From an uncultured Phycisphaera sp. (GTDB taxonomy: Bacteria > Planctomycetota > Phycisphaerae > UBA1845), in contig CAZAMB010000005.1 in assembly GCA_964486335.1 (NCBI GenBank), positions 100,008 to 164,007 on the forward strand: DNA of 64,000 nucleotides, given 5' to 3'. This document shows positions 13,046 to 57,906 of this stretch, piece after piece. Below the pieces are notes generated by a model, which was given only the letters and a program-made list of their open reading frames with translations, ran no database searches and was not told where the DNA came from. Position 1 is the first letter of the stretch. Every line of letters starts with the position of its first letter. The position numbers were made by a program, and so were the translations under genes.

Positions 13046-13217
13046 TCCGTCAGGATGCCAAAAAATGGCCCGATGATGGGGCCTCGGCGAGGTAACGCGA
13101 AATCCATGCGCGTTCAGCAAAGAGCCTATCTCAAGTACAAGGCGAGCTGCGAACTTCAGTTCGCGCGGACTTCCAAAGGGCGATGATGCACTAGGCTCTA
13201 AAGACAAGCGGCGGCTG

Positions 13218-42309: not shown

Positions 42310-42381
42310 GCGGGTGTAGCTCAGTGGTAGAGCGTCACGTTGCCAACGTGAATGTCGAGGGTTCGAGCCCCTTCACCCGCT
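42310..42381 (+). tRNA. tRNA-Gly (anticodon GCC)
   Basis: GCGGGTG-TA-GCTC-AGTGGTA-GAGC-G-TCACG-TTGCCAA-CGTGA-ATGTC-GAGGG-TTCGAGC-CCCTT-CACCCGC-T. The cloverleaf was folded by hand. The T-stem has one G-T pair. Confidence 0.92.
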
Positions 42382-42489
42382 GTTCCTGACGCGCCGTACC
42401 ACGAAGCGACACAGGCGTGCAACCTTTGACTCCAACGCTAGTTACAGCGACCGATTCTCGGCTTTCCTAGATTCTCATTGCCTGGTCGC
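42336..42489 (+). repeat. Island direct repeat, left copy (tRNA-Gly anticodon arm to 3' end plus 108 nt downstream)
   Basis: Gap-free hand alignment with 53567-53720. The tRNA part is 41/46 identical and the downstream part is about 79/108 identical. Confidence 0.85.
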
Positions 42490-42557
42490 TTTTGCCAGAA
42501 AGTGACCGGAATGGACCGCAGTGGACGCCCATTCGTGCAAGGTCTAGTGCGAATTGA
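42396..42557 (+). pseudogene. Decayed copy of the 5' part of the island HTH gene
   Basis: In the frame equivalent to 53627, the translation is VPRSDTGVQPLTPTLVTATDSRLS*ILIAWSLLPESDRNG... The intact copy reads MPASDIAVQLLTPARVTTTDSCLSQVYISWSRFELSKRAG... An in-frame TAG lies at 42468-42470. Confidence 0.45.
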
Positions 42558-44055: not shown

Positions 44056-45465
44056 GTGCCATCGAAAAGTGTTTGGCTGAGGTTTTTCTGTGAAGGCCGT
44101 TGCCTTTCGAGGGCCGCGCTGGCGCGGTCGCTTGCGGACCAAGGCGTATCGGTCGTGGATCCTTTGTCAGAGCGCGAGTCCGGCCCCGGAATTGTCGTAT
44201 TCCAAATTGTTAATTCCGAGCTCTGTGAGCTGATGTCCAAAGTCTCATGTTGTGGTTCGGAACGAGTGCTCGCTTTGGCCGATACTCCATCTGTACTTAA
44301 AAAAGGAGACGTTTGGCGCCTTTTGCACGCCGGCGCGGCGGATGTATTTGATTGGGTGGAATCGGCCAATCCGGCACGGGAGATCGCGATCCGGTTGACA
44401 CGTTGGACCGAGGTCGACGAAATTGTCAAATCATCTCTGGTTCGGGAAAACCTGATTGGACATAGTCGAATTTGGAACGACCTCCTTCGACAAATCGTCG
44501 AAGTAGCGCGATTTTCCGAAGCCTCGATTCTGATAACAGGAGAGAGTGGAACCGGTAAGGAATTGATTGCCCGTTTGATCCATACACTCGATGCCCGGCC
44601 AGACAAAGGTGAACTCGTCGTGCTCGACTGCACAACGATTGTACCGGAACTCGCTGGAAGCGAATTCTTTGGTCACGAGCGTGGGGCCTTTACCGGAGCG
44701 ATTGTCGCACGTGATGGCGCCTTCGCGCTGGCGAACGGCGGCACGCTTTTCCTCGACGAAGTCGGAGACCTACCACGGACGTTGCAGGCGCAGTTGCTTC
44801 GCGTGATACAGGAACACACCTATAAACGTGTAGGAGGCAACCAATGGTGCCAGTCGCATTTTCGATTGTTGTGTGCCACGAACAAGGACTTGACGGTTGA
44901 GGTGAAGGAAGGGCGATTTCGCGCCGACTTGTACTACCGAATTGCAGATTGGACGATTCGATTGCCCCCACTTCGTGACCGTACCGAGGACATTCCCCTG
45001 TTGGCTCGACACTTCATCCAAGCCCATGGCCACCATCGGAGCGATTTCAATTCCGAAGTGACCGAGTATCTGTTGTCTCGGGACTACCCGGGAAACGTTC
45101 GCGATCTGAAACAAGTGGTGGCGCGAATGAGCCATCGACACGTTGGCCAGGGCGAAATCACCGTCGGAGCGATCCCGCCCACGGACCGGCCTCAGGCGGA
45201 GAGTCCGTTGGATAGATGGAGCGACAGAGTGTTCGAACTACCGGTTCGACACTCTCTGGCAGTTGGCGTGGGACTGAAGGAAATCGGCCGAATTGCCGAG
45301 GAGACCGCCGTTCAGATCGCTCTCGCGGAAGAAGGCGGAAATCTGCAGCGAGCCGCTCGACGATTGAAAGTGTCGGATCGCGCCTTGCAGCTCCGACAAG
45401 CCAACGGACGAGGACCCAAGGAAGCGCCCAGCGACCCCGTCATCGAGGGACGGACGCCTGCGTAG
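44056..45465 (+). CDS. Sigma-54-dependent transcriptional activator (bacterial enhancer-binding protein)
   Basis: 469 aa with a GTG start. The AAA+ core has GESGTGKE (Walker A), GGTLFLDEVG (Walker B) and an intact GAFTGA loop (ERGAFTGA). The C-terminal Fis-type HTH is GNLQRAARRLKVSDRALQLR. The N-terminal ~140 aa sensor domain is not assignable by eye. Confidence 0.9.
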   Translation: MPSKSVWLRFFCEGRCLSRAALARSLADQGVSVVDPLSERESGPGIVVFQIVNSELCELMSKVSCCGSERVLALADTPSVLKKGDVWRLLHAGAADVFDWVESANPAREIAIRLTRWTEVDEIVKSSLVRENLIGHSRIWNDLLRQIVEVARFSEASILITGESGTGKELIARLIHTLDARPDKGELVVLDCTTIVPELAGSEFFGHERGAFTGAIVARDGAFALANGGTLFLDEVGDLPRTLQAQLLRVIQEHTYKRVGGNQWCQSHFRLLCATNKDLTVEVKEGRFRADLYYRIADWTIRLPPLRDRTEDIPLLARHFIQAHGHHRSDFNSEVTEYLLSRDYPGNVRDLKQVVARMSHRHVGQGEITVGAIPPTDRPQAESPLDRWSDRVFELPVRHSLAVGVGLKEIGRIAEETAVQIALAEEGGNLQRAARRLKVSDRALQLRQANGRGPKEAPSDPVIEGRTPA

Positions 45466-46282
45466 CCGGCGAAGGTTGGAGCCATGGCTCATTTGGCTCG
45501 ACCATCGGTCTGGAGGGCTTGGCGCCAAAGTGAACGGAACCGACGGGGTTTCGCGAGACTTGGGAAATGAGCCTCAGGATATTCCCGCCGAGAACAAGTC
45601 GCGCGTACTGGGGCGACATGCCAAGCGCTCGAACCTTGGCCAACTCGACGCCAGGATGCAACCAAGGACCGTCGGAACCAAACAGAATTTTTCTTGCGCC
45701 GGCACGATGAAGCGCTTCTTCGAGCAGATCGAACCTTCTTACACCGGACGTATCGGTATGGACATTGGGGTAACGAGTCAGTATGTCCAGGAACGCTCGC
45801 TGGGCGCGCCAGTCGTCTGCGAAGCTGCCCAGATGCGGGATAATGAAATTGACGCCGGCGTATTCCGAAGCGATCAACTCTACCTGCGAGACCTCGCCCA
45901 TCACATCGTAGAGGATGGGCAATGACCAGCGTTTCGCGGCTGCGCAAACCTCTCTTGTGATGGAAGCGTTGTACCGATGGACCTTGATTCCGCGAAATCC
46001 ATGCACGTGCACCGCCTCGTCGATCATCGCCTGCATTCGACCCCGGTCGGCATGTGGGTGGACGAAGGCAAAGCCGATAAAACGACCATTGGATTGAGCG
46101 ACAATTCTCGCCACTTCGCGGTTGGCGGTTCGGTAGTCGGAATGAAACGCAGGGAAGAGTACAGTTCGGCGAATCCCGGCCGCGTCGGCCCGAGCAATGT
46201 ACTTCCCAAGCGGCGCAGCGGTGTCCCAGGGACCCGTCAATCCGTCTCCGCGACCGGCATGGCAATGGCAGTCAATGATCAT
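45440..46282 (-). CDS. Amidohydrolase_2-type (TIM-barrel metal-dependent) hydrolase
   Basis: 280 aa. MIIDCHCH starts the protein, with IPHLG and ILFGSDGPW further on. It is the last gene of the island operon. Its 3' end overlaps the EBP gene 3' end by 26 nt (convergent). Confidence 0.82.
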   Translation of the reverse strand: MIIDCHCHAGRGDGLTGPWDTAAPLGKYIARADAAGIRRTVLFPAFHSDYRTANREVARIVAQSNGRFIGFAFVHPHADRGRMQAMIDEAVHVHGFRGIKVHRYNASITREVCAAAKRWSLPILYDVMGEVSQVELIASEYAGVNFIIPHLGSFADDWRAQRAFLDILTRYPNVHTDTSGVRRFDLLEEALHRAGARKILFGSDGPWLHPGVELAKVRALGMSPQYARLVLGGNILRLISQVSRNPVGSVHFGAKPSRPMVEPNEPWLQPSPATQASVPR

Positions 46283-46442
46283 GGAATCAACCTGAAAATC
46301 GTGATGGACCGCCTGCGGTAGTTGAAGTTCATTGCCGATGCGTCATGGATTCGTCGCCTCTGGGACTTCAGTAACATCTCCGACAAGACCAATTGAATAC
46401 CGGGCCGTCTGTTCACAATTGCCGAAGCGATTTGATTTTAGT

Positions 46443-47447
46443 TTATAGAATCGCACCCGATCGAGATTTGAACCAGGGGGTCAACCGTCTGGCGCCGTCC
46501 AGATTCAGTTCGGTGTGAATGTGATTCGTATGCGGACTAGGGCCAGCATAGTTTCCGTCCTTTCGGCCACTCCGTGAACCATTCCATTTGATACGATTCC
46601 AAATAACGAACTGAATTCCGATGGCCGAAGCATTTTGTACAAGCCAGTTCGCTATCGGATCTCCGACGGCGGAGTTTGCTTGGTGATCTATTTCGCGAAT
46701 CATGATGTCGAGAGCGCGCCCCACCCCGTGAACGGAGGTTTCTGACGGAGTTGCTGAATTAAATCGACATGCATAACCACCGACGGAATCAACGCCTGGA
46801 AACGTCCTTCGTATATAGGTTCCCAGTTCGGCCGCGCCAGGTGTAAACGTGCCGCTGCAATTGCGTCCATTGGCCCACGGTGGAGGACTATCATAGCGAA
46901 CAAACTGTGCTTCGCCGGCAGCGCGAACGTCGGCGGGTAGCACCCATTTCTCGCTCGAAATCGACGGGCTCGGAGAATCCGGCATACTTCCCGTGAGTCG
47001 CTCCCAGGTCCGTCTGCCGACAATGCCGTCAACCGTCAAGCCGTTCGCTCGCTGAAATGTCAGTACCGCCGCTCTCGTAAGGGGACCGAAGGCCCCATCC
47101 TCAGAAAGGCGGCTTTGTCCGGGCGCGGCGTTAGTCGCAATCCAAGCATTAAGTCGTCTTTGCAATTCGATGACAGCCGCTCCGCGCGAACCGGTTCGCA
47201 GCGTTGGCCAAGTTGGTGACTCGTTGAGAATCTCGTCGAACGATAACTCGTCAAGACCAAGTTCATGACCAGGGGACTGCTCAATTTGAAGTACACCGGG
47301 CAAGATCTCATCCAGCTCGGTTGAAAATGGCGATTGATGATCCAGCGGCAGGATGATGTTGCGGCCATGTCGAAACCAGCGGCCGCCTCGTTTTGCACGC
47401 AGGCCACTTGTTTTTCTTACAGAAGATGATGCGCGCAGTCTGTTCAT
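46443..47447 (-). CDS. Peptidoglycan-binding-domain protein with C-terminal LAS-like metallopeptidase-type motifs
   Basis: Start at the ATG at 47447, which makes an ATGA overlap with the upstream stop. The PG_binding_1 repeat is GSRGAAVIELQRRLN...DGAFGPLTRAAVLTFQRANGLTVDGIVGRRTWERL. The C-terminal part has SVHGVGRALDI and HTNHIHTE. The catalytic assignment is inference. Confidence 0.75.
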   Translation of the reverse strand: MNRLRASSSVRKTSGLRAKRGGRWFRHGRNIILPLDHQSPFSTELDEILPGVLQIEQSPGHELGLDELSFDEILNESPTWPTLRTGSRGAAVIELQRRLNAWIATNAAPGQSRLSEDGAFGPLTRAAVLTFQRANGLTVDGIVGRRTWERLTGSMPDSPSPSISSEKWVLPADVRAAGEAQFVRYDSPPPWANGRNCSGTFTPGAAELGTYIRRTFPGVDSVGGYACRFNSATPSETSVHGVGRALDIMIREIDHQANSAVGDPIANWLVQNASAIGIQFVIWNRIKWNGSRSGRKDGNYAGPSPHTNHIHTELNLDGARRLTPWFKSRSGAIL

Positions 47448-48604
47448 GACCTGACTCCTTGGTTTAGGGACAAAGTGGAACCGTAAGATTCCCCGGCGGC
47501 TGAATTCTCGAGTTTCAATTGGCGTGCGCGCGCCAGCGCTTGGCACGCTGAACTGATGTCAATTGGGTTGTGATCGGCGTTGATCAGAAAGGCGATGTTT
47601 GCCCGTGCAGGTCTTTGAACCGAAAGCAGTACCGTTTGGACCCCCATACCCCTAAGCCGACCGGTCATTCTCCTTGCTTCGCCTGACGACCGAAACGACA
47701 ATATCTGCACAGGGAAGAGTCCCGGAGATGGCGTGAATCCTGCCGATCGTGTTCCGGCACGAAATCGTCGTACATTGGAGAGGAGCTGCGATCGTCGTGA
47801 GTTGCCGATGCGCTCGTTGGCCGTCAGCGCGTTCGTGGCAGCCCTGATGGACGCCTGGGAAGGCGGACTGCAATGAACTCGAGTCTCGCTGCGCGTTGCA
47901 AACTGCTCGACAATGTCACCGCGACTCGACAGAGCGGCCACCGGCGCTCCGAATCCCTTGGCCAGGGAACTGATCAAGACCAATTCCTTCGCGCGAACGC
48001 CCCACCACTGGGAGCTTCCGCCTCCGCCTAGCCCATACGGCATTGTTCGCGTCGGTCGCGCGCCAAGAACGCCAAGCGCTTGAGTGTCATCTACGACAAC
48101 AAGACCCTTCACGGCTCGCATCTGACGAAGATAGCTTGTAAGAGGTGCAACCCGTCCGCATCGCATACAGGAACCATCAACGACAACCACCGGACGTGAT
48201 GCAGGCCCGCCAGCATCCTGAAGTGATCGACGCAATGACGAAGGGCAATAGTGCCGAAACGTCTGGACAGACGCGCCGCGCGCCGCCGCCCGTTCCAGTC
48301 CCCAGCGTCCGATGGGATAAAGTCCGCTATCCATGAAAAACCGTGCCCCTTCGTCGGCGAGCATGCCGAGGAAGTCCCAAAACAAGTGTAACGTCGAAGT
48401 TCCAAGCAAAGCCGCTTCACAGCCTTGCAGGTCGGCCAACAATTGGGCGACCCGCTTCGCCTCAGCTGACTCATCAAGTGCCGCAGGTCGGCCGGTCGTC
48501 AACTGCTCCCACGATCCCAGCGCCGAACTCGGGTGCCGCATGCCCAGATACTGGGCCGAGGTAAAGTCAAGCACTGGATGATTTCCGTCAACGACCTCTG
48601 CCAC
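47444..48604 (-). CDS. PLP-dependent class I/II aminotransferase-fold enzyme, alpha-oxoamine-synthase-like
   Basis: 386 aa. LDFTSAQYLGM, VVDDTQALGVLG and SLAKGFGAPVA (putative PLP Lys) parallel the AONS/serine-palmitoyltransferase motifs. Confidence 0.7.
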   Translation of the reverse strand: MAEVVDGNHPVLDFTSAQYLGMRHPSSALGSWEQLTTGRPAALDESAEAKRVAQLLADLQGCEAALLGTSTLHLFWDFLGMLADEGARFFMDSGLYPIGRWGLERAAARGASVQTFRHYCPSSLRRSLQDAGGPASRPVVVVDGSCMRCGRVAPLTSYLRQMRAVKGLVVVDDTQALGVLGARPTRTMPYGLGGGGSSQWWGVRAKELVLISSLAKGFGAPVAALSSRGDIVEQFATRSETRVHCSPPSQASIRAATNALTANERIGNSRRSQLLSNVRRFRAGTRSAGFTPSPGLFPVQILSFRSSGEARRMTGRLRGMGVQTVLLSVQRPARANIAFLINADHNPIDISSACQALARARQLKLENSAAGESYGSTLSLNQGVRS

Positions 48605-50261
48605 CCGTCAATTGCGATTGCAGCCGTTGGCTTAATAGCACTGAAGGCATGGTCGCATTCACCATTCCACTCACCGGCTGAGCTGTCAGATCAACACCCG
48701 TAGCCGCGCGGTAAGCATGGAGGTAACCCTGAATTTCCGGCTTCCAATATCGAGCCCATGTTCGAGCGTGTTCCTGGTCTGTTAGGACATTCCAGTTTCC
48801 ATACCGGATCGAGAGCAGAATCCGTTCTCCGAGGACGCCCAAATCGCGAAAATGGGTGACCGTTACGTCGCTCCAACCCTGAACTCGTTTCATCGCGTCC
48901 ACGCGGCCCATCCACGGTTCCGCATAGGGCACCATGATCCGAGTGCCGAGGAATTCGCGCATTTCGGGTCGGGACAACAACCACTGCTGCATCATCATCT
49001 CGACTCGCGCTGTCCACGGCAGATCCCCGAATTGATTGTGCGCCCCTTGGGCAAGCAGCAAATGGACTTCCTTTAGCGCGTTGAGAAGAGGGAACCCGTC
49101 GGAAATCACGGTCGTGTCCGAGTCTTCCTGAAAAAACACGGAGCTGCGATACAAAAGATCGTGAAATGCTTCGAGAAACTTTGAACGGTTGTCGGCCGGA
49201 CGCATGGTCGAAACGGCCTTGCCCGCGAGCGCCAGTCCGTAGTGGTGGCTATACTCATAGGCTCGGCGAGGAACCGTGAGGCGATGGACTTCGTCCTGGA
49301 TGTACCCCCAAAGAAAGTTGTTGAGTGGCCTCAGCGGATCGATTTCCAACTCGGCCAATGGGTCGCGACCTGCGCCGCGCCGTTTGTTCTGGAATCGAAG
49401 GCTGATGGCGTTCAATGTTTGCGCCAACATCCCTTCTTCGTGCCAATACGACCAGATCAGTTCCAGCAGGCATGGACAAGAAGATTTCGCGCAGAGGATT
49501 TTCCCGTCACAGAAGGCCGAGGTAGCCGTCTGTTCTCGCCAATTCTCACCGAAGGCAGCGGTTAGAATCGTGTTCAAGTAATTGATATCCTTCGTTCGCA
49601 AGTAACTCGCCAGCTTGTCGCTAATGTCCTTCAGGGTGCCGCCCGGCAATGGGAAGTCATCCTCCAGACGTTTGACTTCAGATCCGGGGTCATCCTTTTC
49701 ACCCCATCCTTCGGTCTCGGCGCATGCGCATGGATCGCAATTACTCTTTTCACCTGCTTCTTGTTGTTTCTGAGCAGATGCGCCTTCGCGTGTTGTCGAT
49801 TCCGGATCGTCGGGTTTACGATAACAGGGATCAGGCTTTTTCTTTTCGGGGTCCAGAAACTCATCAGGATGCATTCCCTTTTGAAACGGCCCGCATGTGC
49901 AGCCGCAGCGGATGAGCAAAAACGTCTCCGTGGCCGTCTTCAAAAGGTCGTAGGCGTCCATGCCGTGGATGCAGGGTTCCTTGCTCAAACTTTCTCGCAG
50001 CCTTCGTTCCGGGCAGCAGTCGGGATCTTTGGTGTCTTTGTCGCAGAGCACTCGATCAATAAACTTCGCGTATTCCGAGAACGATGTCCGTTCCGAAGCA
50101 GTCCGAATCCACATCCATAACGGATACGTGTCGTCCCGTTTGAGCGGGGATCTCGAAAGCGAAAAGGTGCCGGACGCCGGCTTGGCAAAATCGCCAGAAA
50201 CACTTACCTTGACTCCCTTCGCCAGCTCTTTACCTTCAACAATAATCTTTCCTTCAGCCAT
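48588..50261 (-). CDS. Hypothetical 557-aa protein, Cys-rich N-terminal half, no recognisable family
   Basis: This long ORF is in operon context. About 15 Cys residues lie in clusters (DCCPE, CGCTCG, CDPCAC, CAKSSCPC), all in the N-terminal half. The C-terminal ~285 aa contain no Cys. Confidence 0.8.
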   Translation of the reverse strand: MAEGKIIVEGKELAKGVKVSVSGDFAKPASGTFSLSRSPLKRDDTYPLWMWIRTASERTSFSEYAKFIDRVLCDKDTKDPDCCPERRLRESLSKEPCIHGMDAYDLLKTATETFLLIRCGCTCGPFQKGMHPDEFLDPEKKKPDPCYRKPDDPESTTREGASAQKQQEAGEKSNCDPCACAETEGWGEKDDPGSEVKRLEDDFPLPGGTLKDISDKLASYLRTKDINYLNTILTAAFGENWREQTATSAFCDGKILCAKSSCPCLLELIWSYWHEEGMLAQTLNAISLRFQNKRRGAGRDPLAELEIDPLRPLNNFLWGYIQDEVHRLTVPRRAYEYSHHYGLALAGKAVSTMRPADNRSKFLEAFHDLLYRSSVFFQEDSDTTVISDGFPLLNALKEVHLLLAQGAHNQFGDLPWTARVEMMMQQWLLSRPEMREFLGTRIMVPYAEPWMGRVDAMKRVQGWSDVTVTHFRDLGVLGERILLSIRYGNWNVLTDQEHARTWARYWKPEIQGYLHAYRAATGVDLTAQPVSGMVNATMPSVLLSQRLQSQLTGGRGR

Positions 50262-50285
50262 GATTTTCTCCTTCGTTCGACGGGA

Positions 50286-51614
50286 CTATGAGGCCCGTGC
50301 GATTGTTTTCTGTGTTCGACCGACGAAAACCCTGCTCCGCGAACAACGGACACAAGCGCCAAACGTGCTTCGAAGCGCCCAATGACTGAGCAATCCACTC
50401 ACGAGGCGACTCTCTTCAACCGGATTGAGGACGCCGTACGCTTTTGCTTGTCCCAATACGGCGAACACAAGCGACTCCGGAGCGGCCCGCAACTGTTCTG
50501 GAAATCGTCGCCAGGTCTGAAAGAGTCTCATTAGGCGATGTGGTTGCCGCTCCTCGACACCGAGGACTTCCCCCAGAGACAATCCCCTGAGAGACTTCGG
50601 TCGATGATGTGTCAACAACGCCACAAAACCAGGAATGCTTGCCTGTAACGCGTTGAATAGCGCGAAACGTCTTGGGTCAAGCTGCGTTGGCGGATAAAAC
50701 GCGTCCCACATCCTCGCGAAATGTTCCCATTGCGGATGTGGATAGAGCGCTTGTCCGACCGCACAACTGAGCTTGACCCTGATCCACGGGCTTGGGTGCG
50801 GATCGTCAAGGTTGATTCGAAAAACGAATCCACGCGGCAGACTGACTACACTCATCAATCCCATGGTGGACGTGATGCCCAACTTCGCCACGGACCAGAA
50901 GTCGGCAACAACCTCGGAAATCCACCGCTCCCAGGCCAGCCACGCAAACGCTTCTGCGCTCCCTTTCTTCCGCATTCCCAGAAGAATTGGCCGGAAGGAC
51001 GGAACCAGTTTCAGCAGTTCCGCTGCCTGATGACCGACCTCGTGGACCAAAGACGATGCGATTCCGCTGCCTACCATTCTCTCCCGCGGCACGCGGATAA
51101 TGGCAACGGGATTGCGCCCGCCCGTGGGCATCCGCGTTCGCGCCCGCCGTATCGCCGCGCCGGGTCCGCGGTCCAGGTAACAAATCACCGGCGGTTCCGA
51201 GTAGTAGCCGCCACCAAGGTGCAATGCATCGGCGGCAAACGCATCCAGTCCGGATAGCCAGATTCCCGTTTCATGTTCGCTGCGTTGAGTGATTGCATCC
51301 GCAAACAGATCAAGATCCGAAAGGACGGCGTTGAACCGCAATCGGAGGAGTACGAATCGCCGCTGCGCTTCCTCGGCGGAGGACAACCGCCCATTCGAAC
51401 CCTCAAGCCACGCCAGAAATGCAACGACTTGTTCCCGCAAATTGCGTCGCCCTTGAAGCAAGTACCCGTCGATGGCTCTTTGCGCGGTTGAGGAAATCGC
51501 CGCGGCGGTTACCGAAGTGATTTGCAGCGCGAATGGCTTCACGATAGCCAGTCGTGTCAGCAGGGCACGGGCTTCCTGCGCAAGAAAACAAGTTGTGTTG
51601 GAACGCATGGACAC
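50286..51614 (-). CDS. Hypothetical 442-aa protein with HExxH motif (putative zinc metallopeptidase)
   Basis: The only motif recognised is SSLVHEVGHQAAELL. The rest is helical-looking sequence without a family I can name. Confidence 0.75.
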   Translation of the reverse strand: MSMRSNTTCFLAQEARALLTRLAIVKPFALQITSVTAAAISSTAQRAIDGYLLQGRRNLREQVVAFLAWLEGSNGRLSSAEEAQRRFVLLRLRFNAVLSDLDLFADAITQRSEHETGIWLSGLDAFAADALHLGGGYYSEPPVICYLDRGPGAAIRRARTRMPTGGRNPVAIIRVPRERMVGSGIASSLVHEVGHQAAELLKLVPSFRPILLGMRKKGSAEAFAWLAWERWISEVVADFWSVAKLGITSTMGLMSVVSLPRGFVFRINLDDPHPSPWIRVKLSCAVGQALYPHPQWEHFARMWDAFYPPTQLDPRRFALFNALQASIPGFVALLTHHRPKSLRGLSLGEVLGVEERQPHRLMRLFQTWRRFPEQLRAAPESLVFAVLGQAKAYGVLNPVEESRLVSGLLSHWALRSTFGACVRCSRSRVFVGRTQKTIARAS

Positions 51615-51620
51615 GACTTG

Positions 51621-52289
51621 TCAAACTCCCAACAGAATGATGCGCCGACCGCGGCGAATCCAGCGACCGCTCTGCCCCGCACTCGAAGTGCTCGCCAGCC
51701 CAGTGTTCATGAGGCCTGGCGCATGACGTTGAGCCGCGGCGGCCAGGGCCGACTTTGCGACGATTCGGGGATCAGTGGTATGTGGGGATGCGGCGGCGTG
51801 CTGAGCAGCGGCGCCGGCCAAGCGAACGAATCGTCGGGCGATTTCAAATTCCTGATCTTCGCCGCTGAGGCCCTCAAATTCCAAGCCAAACAGCTTGCCG
51901 GCCGCGGATCCGGCGGCACTTCCAAGCGCCGTTCCGACACCGGGGATCGGGATGAGTGACCCCAGGGCGCCTCCGGCAATCGGCAGAACCTTCTTGGCGA
52001 TGCCTTTGAGGATTCCGCCAAGCGGACGGAAAACGCGAGGAGCGATGCGCTTAATCCCCTTCCAGGCGCGCTTGAACAATTTGCCGAGGAATTCATCGAT
52101 TTCCTGGTCGCTCGACAATGTGAGCAGTTCGGAGGCGAAATCAACTTCTTCGTCCTGCGTAAATGGTCCCTCGCCGGTCCCGAAATCTCCAAATTCTTCG
52201 AAGACTTCAAAATCGCTCGTTTCACCGCCGAAACCATCGGTTTCCCCGGTGTCTTCGAAATACGTCTGAGTCTGGTCTATGTCGTGCAT
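51621..52289 (-). CDS. Hypothetical 222-aa protein: acidic N-terminus, cationic Gly-rich segment, C-terminal GRWIRRGRRIILLGV tail
   Basis: Residues 1-69 have no Lys or Arg and about 22 Asp/Glu. Residues 70-107 have 11 Lys/Arg and no acidic residues (KLFKRAWKGIKRIAPRVFRPLGGILKGIAKKVLPIAGG). A GxxxG-rich stretch follows. It is a paralogue of 52302..53126. Confidence 0.8.
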   Translation of the reverse strand: MHDIDQTQTYFEDTGETDGFGGETSDFEVFEEFGDFGTGEGPFTQDEEVDFASELLTLSSDQEIDEFLGKLFKRAWKGIKRIAPRVFRPLGGILKGIAKKVLPIAGGALGSLIPIPGVGTALGSAAGSAAGKLFGLEFEGLSGEDQEFEIARRFVRLAGAAAQHAAASPHTTDPRIVAKSALAAAAQRHAPGLMNTGLASTSSAGQSGRWIRRGRRIILLGV

Positions 52290-52301
52290 GTGTTTCTCCT
52301 C

Positions 52302-53126
52302 TTAAATGCCAAGTGCTACGATGGTGTGTCCCGTACGCATCCACCTGCCGTTACCGGGCCGATGAATGGCATAACTGATCCTTGATTCATCCTCGGTTTG
52401 GTCTTCCTCAGGTGCGACAGGAGGCTTGTTGCTTATGCCGAAACCTTGGTCGATCGAATCCTGAATGACGCTTCCACAATGTTGGGCACATGCCGCACAA
52501 TCGCACTCGATTGGCTCCACGGGTTCCGGCGCGACACCGGCGGCCGAACGTGCCCCACCATTGCTCGATGACGACGGAAAAGAAGATGGCATGGACGTTT
52601 GCGCAGGCCGTGTTCCGCTGTCGGTCGGAGGAAATTCCGGCCCATGGGATGGCTTTCCTGTGCGATGCCGCCATCTCCGTTTGCGTCGAAGCTGCTCGCG
52701 AAGAACGCGGAGTGCTGTTCTAATGGCAGGCAAAGCAGCATTTCTCGCGTGTTGTGTACGAGACAGCCGTCTCGCCAACCGACCTGCCAATCGTCCAAAC
52801 CGAACAGCTCGACGTGCTCTCTCAAGGTCCTCTTCATCCGTTTCGAACCCCTCAAGACTGCCATCAATGAACTCCCGAAATTGAGCGTTCAAAGACTCTG
52901 ACGGATCGCCCATGGGCGACGACGCGATGAAGGGTACCCGGCGAATGCCATCAATTGCGCTCTGTACTTGCGGCGTGATGAACTTGGCCAGACTATTCGT
53001 CGTTGAAGTGAGTGACTCCCCGCATTTGCCTAATGTCGCGAGCACAGCTCTGGCAATCTCGTTGCCACTGACCGCTCCTAGCAGGTCAATTGCCAGTTCT
53101 TCTTCGTTTTTTTGGCGATCGTACAT
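52302..53126 (-). CDS. Hypothetical 274-aa paralogue of 51621..52289 (tail NGRWMRTGHTIVALGI)
   Basis: It shares three segments with the downstream gene. Start region: EEELAIDLLGAVSGNE vs EVDFASELLTLSSDQE. Middle: EEDLERARRAVRFGRLAG vs DQEFEIARRFVRLAGAAA. C-terminal tail as in the call. The start is moved to Met 53126 because a sigma-54 promoter lies inside the 5' extension of ORF 52302..53291. Confidence 0.7.
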   Translation of the reverse strand: MYDRQKNEEELAIDLLGAVSGNEIARAVLATLGKCGESLTSTTNSLAKFITPQVQSAIDGIRRVPFIASSPMGDPSESLNAQFREFIDGSLEGFETDEEDLERARRAVRFGRLAGRLARRLSRTQHARNAALPAIRTALRVLREQLRRKRRWRHRTGKPSHGPEFPPTDSGTRPAQTSMPSSFPSSSSNGGARSAAGVAPEPVEPIECDCAACAQHCGSVIQDSIDQGFGISNKPPVAPEEDQTEDESRISYAIHRPGNGRWMRTGHTIVALGI

Positions 53127-53182
53127 AGCACAATTCAATTGGATTGGACTCGCGCATGGGTCCGAACTCAGCTGTGAAAGAA

Positions 53183-53198
53183 AGCAAGTTCCATGCCA
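53183..53198 (-). promoter_or_regulatory. Sigma-54 (-24/-12) promoter
   Basis: The minus strand reads TGGCATGGAACTTGCT, against the consensus TGGCAC-N5-TTGCW. The GG and GC dinucleotides are at canonical spacing. The motif lies 56 nt upstream of the ATG at 53126. An EBP with GAFTGA is encoded in the same island. Confidence 0.6.
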
Positions 53199-53227
53199 GA
53201 AAAACTGGGCCAATAATGGGCATTCTG

Positions 53228-53243
53228 GCGAAGTGTACTTCGC
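53228..53243. promoter_or_regulatory. Dyad GCGAA-N6-TTCGC (candidate enhancer/UAS 1)
   Basis: GCGAAGTGTACTTCGC has 7-bp perfect arms around a 2-nt centre. It lies about 30 nt upstream of the -24 element. Confidence 0.35.
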
Positions 53244-53268
53244 AACGACTGATGAACGGTGCAATTCA

Positions 53269-53284
53269 GCGAATCGCGCTTCGC
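53269..53284. promoter_or_regulatory. Dyad GCGAA-N6-TTCGC (candidate enhancer/UAS 2)
   Basis: GCGAATCGCGCTTCGC has the same 16-nt architecture. It is 41 bp (about four helical turns) from the first dyad. Confidence 0.35.
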
Positions 53285-53566
53285 CGATCATTCTGTTCGC
53301 TGTTGTCCAGTGAACGAAACAGGCCGAGGTGTTATGGGATTCCGTGGCCTGTGGTCAATGGTATTGGATAAGGCAACGAATCACTCGTTTCGAGGTGAAT
53401 CGGACGTTTAAAGTGACGAATCCTGACTTGATCCTACTCGATTGCTCCAATGCTGGGATGAATACTCATTTAACAGATCGCAAATGGCTCTTGGAAAGAA
53501 ACGTGGAAGGGGTTTCCGCATTCTCCGTAACTCTTTGGTTTTGCGCGGTTTAGAACTCGCTGCGTT

Positions 53567-53612
53567 CATGTTGCCTACGTAAATGTCGAGGGTTCGAGTT
53601 CCTTCACCCGCT
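53567..53612 (+). pseudogene. tRNA-Gly 3' fragment (anticodon arm to 3' end), non-functional
   Basis: 41/46 identical to 42336-42381. The anticodon-stem and loop changes are not compensatory. The region 5' of it cannot form acceptor or D arms. Confidence 0.75.
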
Positions 53613-53720
53613 TTGTTTGACGCGCCGTGCCAGCGAGTGACATCGCGGTCCAACTCTTGACCCCAGCGCGAGTTACGACGACCGATTCTTGCCTTTCCCA
53701 GGTTTACATTTCATGGTCGC
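53567..53720 (+). repeat. Island direct repeat, right copy
   Basis: See 42336-42489. The offset is 11231 nt with no gaps over 154 nt. Confidence 0.85.
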
Positions 53721-53863
53721 GTTTCGAGCTGTCTAAGCGGGCGGGCGTCCCGTACAGCGGAATCCACCGCTTTATCAGCTACGACCGCGACCTGACCCTG
53801 ACAACGGCGTCACGGCTGGCCGACGTGCTGGGGCTGGAATTGCGCCCTGCAAAAGGAAAGTAG
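53627..53863 (+). CDS. Small helix-turn-helix protein (Xre/excisionase-like position)
   Basis: 78 aa from the GTG at 53627. FELSKRAGVPYSGIHRFISYDRDLTLTTASRLADVLGLEL is a typical HTH. It ends 8 nt before the integrase start. Confidence 0.55.
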   Translation: MPASDIAVQLLTPARVTTTDSCLSQVYISWSRFELSKRAGVPYSGIHRFISYDRDLTLTTASRLADVLGLELRPAKGK

Positions 53864-53870
53864 GTGCATC

Positions 53871-55340
53871 ATGCCGAGAGTATTCCGGCAAAAATACACG
53901 CAACCGACGGCAGACGGAAAACGAAAAACGCGACAAAGCGCTAAGTGGTACGTCGAGTACCGCGACGCCCAAGGCATTCGGCGTCGGGTTCCGGGGTACA
54001 CCGACAAGGGCGCGACCCAACAGCTCGCGGCGGAGTTGGAACGAAACGCGGAGCGACAGCTCGCGGGTCTGGTCGATGCCTTTGCCGATCATCGAAAGCG
54101 CCCTTTGCGGGAACACCTGAATGATTGGCACGGCGCCTTGATCGCACGCGGCGCGTCGCGCGATTATGCCGACTTGGTCAAGAGCCGAGCGACCAAGGCG
54201 CTGACAGGTTGCGGATTCGTTTTCCTTGCCGACGTATCGGCATCCGACCTGCAAGCCTATCTGAGCAGGTTGCGAAGCGACGGACTGAGCATTCAAACGG
54301 TCAATTTCTACCTGCAAGCGGTCAAGCAGTTTTTCCGCTGGATGGTTGCTGACCGACGAATGCCCGACAACCCGGTCGCGTACCTGCGCGGGGGGAATGT
54401 CCGAACGGATCGTCGCCACGATCGACGCGCACTCGACACTGATGAACTGCGATCGCTACTCGACGCTACGAAGAATGGACCGGAACGGTTTGGCATGAAG
54501 CCTGATGCGCGGGCAATGCTTTATCAGCTTGCGGTTGAAACTGGTCTGCGGGCCACCGAACTGCGAACGCTGACTTGGGATTGTCTGGACTTGGAAGGCG
54601 ACCTGCCGACGGTGACGGTCAAGGCCGGTTATAGCAAACACCGGCGAACCGATACCCTTCCTTTAAAGCCGTCTACGACGCAAACGCTGGCCCGCTGGAG
54701 CAACGAACTCGGCAACGTGGACCCAACGGCACGCCTTTTCAACATGCCGCCCAAGGCCGCGAAAATGCTCCGAGCTGATCTGGCCGACGCTGGCTTACCG
54801 TATGCCGATGCTGATGGGCGCGTGGCCGATTTTCATTCCTTGCGGCACACTTACATTTCCAATCTGGCCCGTGGCGGTGTTCATCCAAAGATCGCCCAAC
54901 AGCTTGCCCGGCATTCGACCATTACGCTGACGATGGATCGCTATTCGCACACGGTTTTGGGCGAGCTATCAGACGCACTGTCGGCCCTGCCGGAGCTGGA
55001 CGCCACGCCATTCGAGCAAGAATCGGTGAGAGCGACCGGCACCTGCGGCAACCCCCAAAAATGCTTACCGATTTCCTTACCGAAATCCTTACCGAAACGC
55101 GGTGCGCGGCGAGAGTTGTCCCATTCATCGGCGTGCAATGATCCAACGCAAACCGCGAAATTCGACCGGCAAGAAAATCCTATGAATATAGGTATTTCCT
55201 GCGCTTCCACGCGTGACGACGCGGGTGTGTTCGTGGAACAATCCCGACTGCGCCCGGCGGGATTCGAACCTGCGACCCCCGGTTTAGGAAACCGGTGCTC
55301 TATCCAACTGAGCTACGAGCGCAACAATCGGCTAGTATAA
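53871..55340 (+). CDS. Tyrosine recombinase / phage-type integrase
   Basis: 489 aa. It has an N-terminal SAM-like domain. The catalytic region has LAVETGLRATEL (Arg), HSLRHTYISNL (HxxR) and HSTITLTMDRYSH (His/Tyr). The last ~30 codons read antisense through tRNA-Arg. Confidence 0.9.
   Translation: MPRVFRQKYTQPTADGKRKTRQSAKWYVEYRDAQGIRRRVPGYTDKGATQQLAAELERNAERQLAGLVDAFADHRKRPLREHLNDWHGALIARGASRDYADLVKSRATKALTGCGFVFLADVSASDLQAYLSRLRSDGLSIQTVNFYLQAVKQFFRWMVADRRMPDNPVAYLRGGNVRTDRRHDRRALDTDELRSLLDATKNGPERFGMKPDARAMLYQLAVETGLRATELRTLTWDCLDLEGDLPTVTVKAGYSKHRRTDTLPLKPSTTQTLARWSNELGNVDPTARLFNMPPKAAKMLRADLADAGLPYADADGRVADFHSLRHTYISNLARGGVHPKIAQQLARHSTITLTMDRYSHTVLGELSDALSALPELDATPFEQESVRATGTCGNPQKCLPISLPKSLPKRGARRELSHSSACNDPTQTAKFDRQENPMNIGISCASTRDDAGVFVEQSRLRPAGFEPATPGLGNRCSIQLSYERNNRLV
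55249..55322 (-). tRNA. tRNA-Arg (anticodon CCT)
   Basis: The minus strand reads GCGCTCG-TA-GCTC-AGTTGGATA-GAGC-A-CCGGT-TTCCTAA-ACCGG-GGGTC-GCAGG-TTCGAAT-CCCGC-CGGGCGC-A. There is one A-C mismatch in the T-stem and one G-T pair in the acceptor stem. Confidence 0.85.
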
Positions 55341-56721: not shown

Positions 56722-56931
56722 CCTGTGAATCCGCGCTGTGCTGGCAGGGACGGCGCTTCGGCTTCACTTATGGGTCCTACGATGCGTCGAGTAGCCGGCA
56801 CATTTACGGAAACCTAGAATGGATCAGCGGGAAGCCCATTTCGGAGGTCCGGTTGCGAACTTCCCGAGTGGTCCACGAGGGTTAGATTGGCGCGAATTCT
56901 AAGATTGATATCACCGCAGGGAGAGCGAGCG

Positions 56932-57906
56932 ATGCGACTGGGGACGATGGGTCTGATTGGTCTGTTCACGATCCTCGCGGGAAAAGCCGACGGCGGACTC
57001 ATCATCACGCTCGACGCGCGGGATTCCGCGGGGATGCCATTTGCGTCGCCCGCGACGGCGGGCACAACCGCGCGAGTAGGCATCCTGCTTTCAACCGATG
57101 GTGCGGATGATCCGCTTCCCGACCTGCGCGGCCTCCAGTTCGATTTCTCGGGCACAAGTTCGAGCATTTTGGTGAATTCGTTCGCATGGTCGGTCAATGA
57201 GGATGTCTATGCATTTCGCACGACGGCGCCGCCGAATGTTTCGGCGATTACGCTGCTCTTGGCGAGTTCATCAACGCTGCTGACGTTGACGGGAACCCCG
57301 GTGCAGGTCGCGTCGGTGGACATCACGGTGAATGGAACCGGCACACTTGATGTGCGTAACACGGCCGCGCCTGACACCAACACTTCGGCCTGGTTTCGCG
57401 CCGGATTCGCGACGTCGATGGAATTCTCACTGATTCACGGAAACCTCACGGGCGGCACGCTGGACATCGCGGTTCCCGGGACGGTTGATCCCGGTCCCGT
57501 TGGTGGTGGCGGAGGCGGCGGTTCGGGAGGCGGTGATCCGGCGACAACCGATTCCGACTCCGACGGCGTGGTCGACGCCGACGATGCGTTTCCCGACGAT
57601 CCAACCGAAACGATGGACACCGACAACAACGGCGTCGGCAACAATAACGATCCCGACGACGACGGCGACGGTGTGGACGACGCAGACGATGCGTTTCCGA
57701 TCGATCCTGCGGAAACGACCGACACCGACGGCGACGGCATCGGCGACAACGCCGATCCGGATACAGGCGGAGGCATCATCAACAATCCGCCCCCCAACTC
57801 GGCGCCGCGCATGTGCGGTTTCGGCATGGTCGGCCCGACCTTGCTTTTATTTGTCAGTCTCGCCGCGGTCCGATCGCAACGGTACCGGCCGAACAGACAC
57901 GGCTGA
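56932..57906 (+). CDS. Secreted protein with thrombospondin type-3-like Ca-binding repeats and C-terminal hydrophobic anchor
   Basis: A signal peptide is present. The repeats are DSDSDGVVDADDAFPDDPTETMDTDNNGVGNNNDPDDDGDGVDDADDAFPIDPAETTDTDGDGIGDNADPD. The tail is MCGFGMVGPTLLLFVSLAAVRSQRYR. Confidence 0.75.
   Translation: MRLGTMGLIGLFTILAGKADGGLIITLDARDSAGMPFASPATAGTTARVGILLSTDGADDPLPDLRGLQFDFSGTSSSILVNSFAWSVNEDVYAFRTTAPPNVSAITLLLASSSTLLTLTGTPVQVASVDITVNGTGTLDVRNTAAPDTNTSAWFRAGFATSMEFSLIHGNLTGGTLDIAVPGTVDPGPVGGGGGGGSGGGDPATTDSDSDGVVDADDAFPDDPTETMDTDNNGVGNNNDPDDDGDGVDDADDAFPIDPAETTDTDGDGIGDNADPDTGGGIINNPPPNSAPRMCGFGMVGPTLLLFVSLAAVRSQRYRPNRHG

Follow-up and report, generated by a model that had tools for sequence, protein, structure and literature searches.

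A widespread sigma-54-controlled gene cassette with two unannotated protein families that probably acts on the bacterial cell envelope

In holin-endolysin cassettes and in type 10 secretion, leaderless cell wall hydrolases are found beside small membrane-active proteins under tight gating, and non-lytic holin-dependent release is known as well (PMC9527704, PMC6200909). We describe a comparable arrangement in a stretch of 64,000 nucleotides from an uncultured Phycisphaera sp. of the Planctomycetota (assembly GCA_964486335.1, contig CAZAMB010000005.1, positions 100,008 to 164,007 of the forward strand), which is called the window in the following. It harbours a cassette of seven co-directional genes, g1 to g7, and a gene for a sigma-54 enhancer-binding protein (EBP), and here, too, a leaderless protein with a PG_binding_1 and a hydrolase-like domain is encoded together with small, predicted membrane-active proteins. 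However, the small proteins of the cassette have no canonical transmembrane (TM) domain, there is neither a spanin nor a phage context, control is predicted to be exerted by sigma-54 and the EBP, and g3, g4, g5, g7 and the EBP are without counterpart in these lysis and secretion systems. We conclude that the cassette probably represents an inducible, so far undescribed system directed at the cell envelope.

Bacterial gasdermins with their proteases and other protease-effector defence modules (PMC12642450) offer an analogy, as there too a latent membrane-directed effector would lie beside a protease-like gene and be activated by removal of an inhibitory segment. There is no sequence relationship to these modules, though. 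The presumed inhibitory region of the cassette is an N-terminal polyanionic stretch, the protease candidate is an unclassified HExxH protein and not of the caspase, CHAT or subtilisin type, and activation by cleavage is putative. With polymorphic toxins such as CdiA with its VENN motif and Rhs proteins (PMC3482391) the cassette shares a conserved module, a short invariant motif and interchangeable enzymatic domains, while the stand-alone g6 keeps the motif only. In contrast to these toxins, the cassette has no known trafficking domain or secretion system, and its effector domains occur on either side of the module. In glycine-zipper membrane toxins such as Caulobacter CdzC/CdzD and the effectors Tse4 and Ssp6 of type VI secretion systems (T6SS), a hydrophobic segment rich in Gly-x3-Gly is the most conserved part. 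By this comparison, a zipper as the most conserved element is a shared trait of our small proteins. They differ in that their match to Gly-zipper_Omp is sub-threshold, no type I secretion system or T6SS genes are present, and the proteins are longer, with large charged flanks and a GRW C-terminus.

A dedicated EBP next to a single sigma-54 operon is also found in PspF-pspABCDE and RtcR-rtcBA. The EBP of the cassette, however, scores far below the cut-offs of these families and has an unmatched N-terminal sensor; a CARF domain, PspA and RtcB are absent, and the upstream GCGAA-N6-TTCGC palindrome is a cassette-specific site. Among published systems, the closest analogy is found in zincins paired with FxSxx-COOH precursors, reported by Haft and Basu 2011 as cited in PMC7159879, in which a zincin-like gene is likewise associated with small proteins and a conserved C-terminal peptide. 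Here, no FxSxx model of NCBIfam matched, no radical-SAM partner was present, and the small proteins are larger and contain a glycine zipper. Moreover, the conserved set holds no radical-SAM, YcaO or Lan enzyme.

An initial annotation made from the letters of the window had recognised no described defence, secretion, bacteriocin or biosynthetic locus in this gene combination. The same picture emerged from PADLOC, PHROGs, Pfam, NCBIfam, PDB and full-text literature, none of which yielded a match to a described system of these kinds. No description of the cassette was found in the full texts, although literature beyond the searched collection might hold one, and papers on the sigma-54 transcriptome of Paraburkholderia phymatum do not mention it. 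The cassette could not be assigned to phage lysis cassettes, catalogued defence systems, polymorphic toxins with known trafficking, ribosomally synthesised and post-translationally modified peptides (RiPPs) or FxSxx systems, or Psp/Rtc regulons. Only generic features were recovered, namely a sigma-54/EBP unit, a pyridoxal phosphate (PLP) enzyme fold, an amidohydrolase, a peptidoglycan-binding domain and an HExxH motif with a further glutamate. We rate the cassette as new in its components and architecture, while its function may prove analogous to known lysis or effector-release systems.

A survey of gene neighbourhoods, proposed in the initial annotation, revealed a strongly conserved gene order in at least seven phyla. 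In the neighbourhoods and in a tblastn survey that took in 85 loci, one or two small-protein genes, g3, g4, g5, a variable slot, g7 and the EBP gene followed each other everywhere. Component counts are based on 55 related loci with full coverage. A g2-like small protein, g3 and g4 were each present in all 55, g7 in 53 (median identity 65%), g5 in 50 and the EBP in 49. All-versus-all clustering of the open reading frames (ORFs) of the loci gave only two other conserved families, an M20 peptidase and a PG_binding_1 protein (17 loci each). Because no further conserved family was obtained, the limits of the cassette are the small-protein genes and the EBP gene, which is exactly the block in the window. 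The M20 peptidase of some homologous cassettes is absent from this window.

Confirmed relatives of g3 were detected in at least 587 species genomes in a scan of one genome per species. According to the record titles, the carriers belong to Planctomycetota (including anammox bacteria), Chloroflexota, Nitrospirota, Acidobacteriota, Verrucomicrobiota, Methylomirabilis and Alpha-, Beta- and Gammaproteobacteria. Among cultured bacteria, Nitrosomonas ureae, Nitrosospira, Variovorax, Janthinobacterium lividum, Cupriavidus respiraculi, Thauera and Roseateles carry the cassette, and it is also located on megaplasmids or chromids of Rhizobium, Ensifer adhaerens and Paraburkholderia phymatum STM815. The cassette is self-contained and has clearly spread horizontally. 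A phage origin was rejected, as no g3 relative was present in 50,697 phage records or in IMG/VR. At single loci the cassette is accompanied by DruA (L004/L005), by a TIR-nSTAND-WD40 protein and a patatin (L002) or by a serine recombinase (L001). Defence-type genes occur at some loci and the other neighbourhoods consist of ordinary, unrelated metabolism, so that no consistent association with defence islands emerged.

A distantly related cassette was noticed on a plasmid of Paraburkholderia sp. PGU19 (NZ_AP023181.1, 7558-15127; L086). It encodes, in this order, a protein of 347 aa with acidic (GEWE)n repeats, an HExxH protein resembling g3 (LHEVSHN, 25% identity), three proteins of 176, 652 and 388 aa without matches, and an M20 peptidase; a WD40 protein is encoded upstream. 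This variant suggests that a wider superfamily of such cassettes exists. A kinship of the g4 and g2 families to proteins of this plasmid was considered as well, and hhalign showed none.

The near-consensus -24/-12 element noted before the first gene, TGGCATGGAACTTGCT, turned out to be the sole match in the window to the -24/-12 consensus (GG-N10-GC, TGGCAC-N5-TTGCW) at no more than one mismatch. Of 76 related loci, 69 have an equivalent element upstream of the small-protein genes, compared to a chance expectation of 0.32 per region. The window contains two perfect copies of the palindrome GCGAA-N6-TTCGC just upstream of the -24 element. In its relaxed form, CGAA-N6-TTCG, the palindrome was found in 97 copies within 300 nt upstream of the -24 element across the 55 loci. 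This corresponds to a density of 5.9 per kb compared to 0.06 per kb elsewhere in the loci, an approximately 100-fold enrichment. At least one copy was present in 51 loci and at least two in 46. Most simply, GCGAA-N6-TTCGC is the candidate binding site of the co-inherited EBP. A third perfect copy (GCGAACTTCAGTTCGC) was observed at 13149-13164, in an intergenic region upstream of ORF 13218-14687. The product of this ORF resembles a prepilin peptidase by eye, and no strong -24/-12 element is evident near the palindrome. This copy could be due to chance or mark a second target of the EBP.

The convergently encoded EBP was described as having an intact GAFTGA motif, which agrees with its Pfam domains (Sigma54_activat PF00158, 1.1e-56; AAA_lid_14; HTH_8) and with the convergent orientation of the gene in 45 of the 55 loci. 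It consists of an AAA+ domain with GAFTGA and a C-terminal helix-turn-helix (HTH) domain. In 46 homologues ERGAFTGA is at least 95% conserved and the HTH is conserved too. The N-terminal domain of about 125 aa, on the other hand, is weakly conserved among these homologues and matches no Pfam family. The best model matches, to RtcR, NorR, NifA and PspF, cover the AAA+ core only and are far below the family cut-offs. Sensing by a CARF-type domain was rejected, as the RtcR-like match is confined to the AAA+ region. Taken together, the conservation of promoter, GAFTGA EBP and upstream palindromes across phyla argues for a single unit under predicted sigma-54/EBP control, as had been proposed.

Two of the constant components, g3 and g4, belong to families without annotation. 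In g3 the initial annotation had recognised HEVGH as the only feature, and profile searches found no family for it either. The g3 family comprises 5768 proteins at E<=1e-3, with about 60-68% identity across phyla; relatives come from Chloroflexi, Nitrospira, Methylomirabilis, Blastocatellia, Methylococcus and Planctomycetia. HEVGHQ is invariant, and so are H189, E190, H193, E232 and D236 in 30 sequences, which is a gluzincin-like signature. In the AlphaFold2 (AF2) model of g3 (pLDDT 83.7, pTM 0.85) an N-terminal helical bundle and two strands precede the HExxH helix (residues 181-198), and E232 is located on a long helix (220-243). Sequence and profile searches of the PDB with g3 gave no match even at E<=10.

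For g4, 4886 proteins were obtained at E<=1e-3 among 8000 candidates scored. They share 50-67% identity across phyla (Bradyrhizobium, Competibacteraceae, Brocadiia, Thermoanaerobaculia and Planctomycetia) and are all named 'hypothetical'. No Pfam domain covers the conserved part of the g4 homologues. When 1.84 billion representatives were searched with a family profile, 1303 clusters (at 50% identity) were retrieved; the top 150 listed are all close family members, and none of them forms a bridge to a known family. Residues from about 255 to 557 are extremely conserved, with many invariant Trp, His, Glu, Asp, Arg and Tyr residues in the C-terminal 300 positions. The AF2 model of g4 was poor (pLDDT 55), and a search against the PDB returned a single insignificant match (0.056). 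The N-terminal cysteines highlighted in the initial annotation are indeed 15 in number and all lie at or before position 264, but cysteine richness is not a family trait. The Cys-rich insert is lineage-specific, and across the family C73 alone is invariant and C251 nearly so. Many g4 homologues (P0014, P0017, P0036, P0102, P0076 and others) carry an extra N-terminal beta-sandwich of 100-250 residues, either CarboxypepD_reg or Ig-like. The g4 protein of the window has no such domain. A beta-sandwich of this kind is unusual in a protein without a signal peptide.

Neither g3 nor g4 had a match in Pfam, NCBIfam, PADLOC, PHROGs or PDB, and scans of all 30 members per family alignment at E<=10 revealed no consistent weak family. 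Likewise, g1 was without a match in Pfam, NCBIfam, PADLOC and PHROGs. The profile searches that had been recommended thus placed none of g1 to g4 in a characterised pathway with confidence.

The small protein g2, with 1958 homologues, begins with an anionic N-terminus, which is followed by a cationic amphipathic helix, then by an invariant glycine zipper (LPxxGGALG...PGVGT), an acidic helix and the C-terminal GRWIRRGRRIILLGV. The N-terminal part of the family consensus reads MHDIDRTQ, a variable acidic stretch, ESPFxExEEMELAAELLxxxxExELDQFLGKLFK and a basic stretch. It continues with KKALPxVGGALGSFIPIPGVGTAxGxAxG, ELEGxSxEDQEFExARRFVRLAG, an Ala-rich helix and GRWxRRGxxIxLxG at the C-terminus. 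Invariant residues are concentrated in the glycine zipper and the GRW motif. The charges of the anionic and cationic segments are -22 and +11 in the window and -22 and +10 as medians of 40 homologues, in which the median segment charges from the N- to the C-terminus are -22, +10, 0, -6, +5, +2 and +4. The helical hydrophobic moment of the basic segment is 0.91, compared to 0.65 for the 95th percentile of shuffled sequences. In the profile libraries (Pfam, NCBIfam, PADLOC and PHROGs) g2 obtained only sub-threshold matches, among them the one to Gly-zipper_Omp of Pfam (E 0.016). The zipper is amphipathic and borderline for a TM segment.

The paralogy of g1 and g2 held as far as the shared C-terminal GRWxRxG is concerned. 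The common description as acidic and Gly-rich did not, since g1 is degenerate: the acidic-helix block and GRWMRTGHTIVALGI at the C-terminus are retained, the glycine zipper is missing, the N-terminus is only mildly acidic and the protein is not Gly-rich. All eight proteins, g1 to g7 and the EBP, are devoid of a signal peptide and of any segment above the standard TM hydropathy threshold. Long low-complexity N-terminal extensions were observed in some proteins with the g2 module (L035 14480-16186, L062 7707-10259 and L081 13484-14674). They consist of (GEYE)n or (GEFE)n acidic repeats and of Arg/Gly- or Ser/Arg/Gln-rich repeats, so that the split into acidic and basic parts is exaggerated.

The slot between g5 and g7 is filled by g6 in the window, which was annotated as a PG_binding_1 protein with LAS-like His/Asp motifs. 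The PG_binding_1 part was borne out by a match of 9.4e-17. The C-terminal domain is putatively LAS/M15-like: SVHGVGRALD and HTNHIH, seen in its sequence, correspond to the SxHxxGxAxD and HxH metal-binding motifs of these VanY-like peptidases. Extensin-like_C matched at 0.0028 with 18.3 bits, below the Pfam cut-off of 25.4. PHROG matches were to endolysin and tape-measure lysin domains (tape-measure lysin 1.9e-9), and in the PDB 1lbu matched the binding domain and 9flh the C-terminal domain (3.4e-5). The protein is leaderless and has the motif GRWFRHGRNIIL near its N-terminus. In a six-frame translation of the whole window GRWxRxG occurs exactly three times, at the C-termini of g1 and g2 and at the N-terminus of g6. 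Because the motif is confined to these sites, g6 looks like an effector part that has retained only the junction motif.

At other loci the slot is occupied by proteins in which PG_binding_1 is combined with VanY, Amidase_2, DUF2272, PLDc_2 or OmpA-like domains, and also by PG_binding_1-Amidase_2, M20 and Peptidase_M74 proteins. Many slot proteins are fused to a g2-like module (g2 residues of about 40-193) followed by GRWxRRGxxIVL, and these fusions include PG_binding_1 and Amidase_2 domains. The strongest hint at function comes from this combination of a constant module and an invariant motif with exchangeable domains that degrade the envelope. It was put forward earlier that the module might be envelope-directed, and this idea is strengthened by the VanY, Amidase_2, Peptidase_M74, phospholipase D (PLD) and OmpA-like domains in the slot elsewhere. 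A GIY-YIG-like sequence (GVYLLIF...IGYVGQTGNLYVRMRVHH) was spotted between PG_binding_1 and the g2 module in two proteins (L027 14650-16584, residues of about 224-260, and L015 14666-17050). This resemblance was seen by eye only, and no Pfam GIY-YIG match was obtained at E<=0.01, so that the identity was not adopted.

Two further enzymes belong to the conserved set. The alpha-oxoamine-synthase-like (AONS-like) character ascribed to g5 could be narrowed to a distant relationship with BioF, Kbl and SPT. Aminotran_1_2 matched weakly (7e-5), and the bioF model reached 2.7e-18 with 65.9 bits compared to a cut-off of 426; the PDB match to BioF was 4.8e-14. The protein has a fold-type I PLP domain; among 46 homologues, conservation of its SLAK lysine and of a DDTQ motif reaches at least 95%. 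The canonical motif of BioF is DDAH. Thus, g5 shares the Schiff-base lysine with the alpha-oxoamine synthases (BioF, Kbl, ALAS and SPT) but stays below the equivalog cut-off and has DDTQ instead of DDAH. In agreement with its description as Amidohydrolase_2-like, g7 matched Amidohydro_2 (PF04909, 5e-19), and the metal ligands HxH, H150 and D203 are conserved in 40 homologues.

We propose that the cassette is a sigma-54-licensed, protease-gated module that breaches the envelope, either by lysis or by effector release, and assign to this reading a probability of about 0.4. The cassette would be silent until its own EBP is activated. A signal at the unclassified N-terminal domain of the EBP would switch the operon on, and g3 (HExxH...E) might then cut the anionic pro-region off the small proteins. 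Once freed, the cationic helix and the glycine zipper could make the cytoplasmic membrane permeable from the inside, which would allow the leaderless wall enzymes to reach the sacculus as in holin-endolysin lysis or with protease-activated pore formers. The outcome may be programmed lysis as altruistic defence, lysis-dependent antagonism in which envelope-degrading effectors are released, or non-lytic export. Possible targets of g4, g5, g7 and M20 are precursors of the wall or a small molecule serving as cofactor or signal; alternatively, they may help to assemble the small proteins via the GRW motif. The logic of this mechanism is borrowed by analogy from holin-endolysin cassettes and protease-activated pore formers, and none of the parts is homologous. 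In its favour are the conserved switch, the tight operon spacing, the leaderless products and the envelope enzymes and g2-module fusions in the slot. The charge pattern of g2 with its high hydrophobic moment and invariant glycine zipper and the invariant HExxH and Glu of g3, with two strands ahead of the HExxH helix in a confident model, point in the same direction.

Several observations weigh against this proposal. The AF2 model of g3 showed no significant fold match to a zincin or any other structure in PDB or BFVD; with a good model and no significant structural match, a peptidase activity of g3 would rest on its motif. In g1 and g2 no TM segment was detected, the maximum Kyte-Doolittle 19-residue score being 1.54 for g2 and 1.22 for g1 at a threshold of 1.6. 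Cleavage, membrane activity and lysis are all read from sequence features, and g4, g5, g7 and M20 are without a role in the model. Furthermore, the identity of g3 and g4 across phyla (about 60-67%) is unusual for parts of toxins or defence systems and suggests a constrained enzymatic or structural role. PADLOC-DB v2 gave no system match for the cassette: g1 to g7 had no match or one at E >=0.03, and the generic AAA+/HTH part of the EBP matched RtcR/PspF-type models. The neighbouring genes are heterogeneous and do not consistently form defence islands, and the conserved cassette has neither a spanin nor an outer-membrane component.

The recurrence of module, motif and variable enzymatic domain in many loci would also fit an interbacterial weapon whose effectors are polymorphic. 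In this case, the g2-like module would be the constant domain for delivery or translocation, GRWxRxG the toxin junction and g3/g4 a new export route, with neighbouring cells as targets, and g6 with the motif alone at its N-terminus would resemble an orphan effector cassette. Peptidoglycan amidases and peptidases and phospholipase D, which are found in the slot, are typical of antibacterial effectors of T6SS and polymorphic toxins. Such effector types have been described for polymorphic toxins (PMC3482391). Nevertheless, we regard a weapon as unlikely, as neither a secretion component nor an ATPase, a membrane channel or a signal peptide could be recognised in the conserved set, and Pfam finds no PAAR, Rhs or LXG trafficking domain. 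In addition, no conserved immunity gene turned up, though no dedicated search for one was made, and the 160-nt gap beside g6 contains no ORF. It is similarly doubtful that g3 and g4 form the core of a new machine which recognises the GRWxRxGxxIxLxG tag and assembles or delivers glycine-zipper proteins together with peptidoglycan hydrolases or phospholipases across the envelope. A related idea, in which GRWxRxG docks the small proteins and wall enzymes onto a g4/g3 particle, compartment or filament, draws on the invariant motif at the extreme C-terminus (N-terminus in g6), as in cargo-loading peptides. It also draws on a g3/g4 conservation typical of structural proteins with multiple interfaces and on the CarboxypepD_reg or Ig-like domains at the N-terminus of some g4 homologues. 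However, the searches revealed no resemblance to shell, capsid or tube proteins already described and no link to phages or viruses; g4 has no usable model, and docking through the motif is purely hypothetical, which makes such a tag-loaded assembly most improbable.

Instead of killing, the sigma-54 programme might serve a non-lethal remodelling of the envelope or a stress response that reshapes or salvages peptidoglycan, for instance during dormancy, when cells change shape or in the turnover of stem peptides. The role of the small proteins would be that of scaffolds associated with the membrane, and the released amino acids or precursors would be processed by the AONS-like, Amidohydro_2 and M20 enzymes. 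Several conserved small-molecule enzymes with intact catalytic residues, the M20 peptidase in 17 loci and the housekeeping-like conservation of g3, g4 and g7 speak for this explanation. Moreover, sigma-54 is frequently tied to the cell exterior (PMC3162934), and the EBP resembles PspF-type activators, though below family cut-offs. On balance we hold remodelling together with this salvage scheme to be rather unlikely, because all wall enzymes lack export signals, a PLD phospholipase occurs in the slot, and a PspA/IM30 partner or transporter is absent from the conserved set. A sporadic, horizontally transferred cassette on islands and megaplasmids also fits an accessory trait better than core physiology. 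Processing of a RiPP-like peptide, finally, would have g3 free a conserved peptide (GRWxRRGxxIxLxG or the glycine-zipper core) that the PLP enzyme, the amidohydrolase and M20 modify into a signal or an antimicrobial. A zincin-like gene does adjoin small proteins with a variable acidic leader and an invariant C-terminal peptide, which resembles the zincin/FxSxx-COOH precursor pairing (PMC7159879). This explanation appears very unlikely in view of precursors of about 220 aa whose best conserved part is a 30-aa glycine zipper and not a short core peptide. Large peptidoglycan enzymes also occur as fusion partners of the module, the cassette lacks a maturase or exporter of the RiPP class, and no RiPP model of NCBIfam or Pfam matches.

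The finding is much more general than the window alone could show, and it is well delimited. With thousands of sequences each, g3 and g4 are large families and among the better conserved ones found without annotation; they always travel together, accompanied by a dedicated switch whose candidate DNA site can be written down. The carriers include organisms that drive nitrification, anammox, methane oxidation and legume symbiosis and many soil and water bacteria. If lysis or the release of wall enzymes proves true, effects on the stability of biofilms and granules, on phage resistance and on competition could follow. Should g3 and g4 instead be a tag-recognising machine, two families without characterised relatives would provide a new sigma-54-licensed protein-delivery or programmed-lysis system. 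Proteins that combine a pro-region, a cationic helix and a glycine zipper could constitute a new membrane-active class, and the sigma-54/EBP/palindrome unit represents a regulatory part that is compact and tightly off. With its components, boundaries, promoter, candidate operator and conserved residues, the system is defined well enough for tests in culturable hosts.

Table 1. Coordinates of the cassette, its regulatory elements and the surrounding island in the window
Feature	Position	Strand	Description	Basis
g1	52302..53126	-	274 aa; degenerate paralogue of g2; first operon gene	ORF scan, alignment
g2	51621..52289	-	small protein, 222 aa	ORF scan
g3	50286..51614	-	440-442 aa; HExxH protein, unannotated family	ORF scan
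g4	48588..50261	-	557 aa, all-helical, unannotated family	ORF scan
g5	47444..48604	-	386 aa, divergent PLP enzyme, AONS-like; alternative start 48574	
g6	46443..47447	-	334 aa, PG-binding and LAS/M15-like peptidase domain; variable slot	
g7	45440..46282	-	280 aa, Amidohydro_2 metal-dependent hydrolase; last operon gene	
EBP	44056..45465	+	469 aa, sigma-54 enhancer-binding protein, convergent with operon	
Sigma-54 -24/-12 promoter element	53183..53198	-	TGGCATGGAACTTGCT	
Proximal palindrome GCGAA-N6-TTCGC	53228..53243		candidate EBP binding site	
Distal palindrome GCGAA-N6-TTCGC	53269..53284		41 nt from proximal copy	
tRNA-Gly(GCC)	42310-42381	+		ARAGORN, Rfam
Left direct-repeat copy, 159 nt	42335-42493	+	tRNA-Gly 3' half and flank; left island boundary	
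Right direct-repeat copy	53566-53724	+	partial tRNA-Gly 3' half and flank; right island boundary	
Tyrosine recombinase (integrase)	53871..55340	+		Phage_integrase 2.1e-18
tRNA-Arg(CCT)	55248-55323	-		

The layout of seven minus-strand ORFs and a plus-strand EBP gene given in the initial annotation was reproduced by the ORF scan (Table 1). The same applies to the gaps of 12, 6 and 24 nt, the larger gap of 160 nt (46283-46442), the ATGA stop/start overlap at 47444-47447 and the convergent overlap of 26 nt between the EBP gene and g7 (45440-45465). The 17-nt overlap of g4 and g5 depends on the start codon: it is present with the start at 48604, whereas an independent gene call on an identical contig starts g5 at 48574, which leaves a 13-nt gap to g4. 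For g1 the ATG at 53126 was taken as the start, because the promoter and the palindromes fall inside a longer ORF reaching 53291; the -24/-12 element sits 57 nt upstream of this ATG. No internal terminator-like site was found on the coding strand of the operon and no Rfam element within it, and the 160-nt gap contains no Rfam family and no evident promoter.

In this genome the cassette lies on an island, as had been stated. The boundaries are not a tRNA-Gly and a tRNA-Arg gene, though, but direct repeats of the tRNA-Gly 3' half, and the arrangement is genome-specific. In the alignment the right repeat is 78% identical to the left one, and its tRNA part (53585-53611) has 2 mismatches. The repeats bracket about 11.2 kb with a DoxX-like gene, the EBP gene and the operon. 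The integrase gene is located just outside the right repeat, and its 3' end runs into the opposite-strand tRNA-Arg(CCT). Its position outside the tRNA-Gly repeats and beside tRNA-Arg suggests that two elements accreted in tandem or that the cassette was mobilised in trans. An association with tRNA genes or islands was rejected as a general trait, since only 0-1 of 50 other loci are flanked by a tRNA. Therefore, the island is the acquisition route in this genome and not a feature of the cassette. Further downstream in the window, ORF 56887-57906 encodes a protein of 339 aa with Asp-rich repeats of the DxDxDGxxDxxD type, which by eye resemble thrombospondin type 3. Its C-terminus has a hydrophobic segment and, behind it, basic residues. 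This protein has no relation to the cassette and may be of the sorting-signal type.

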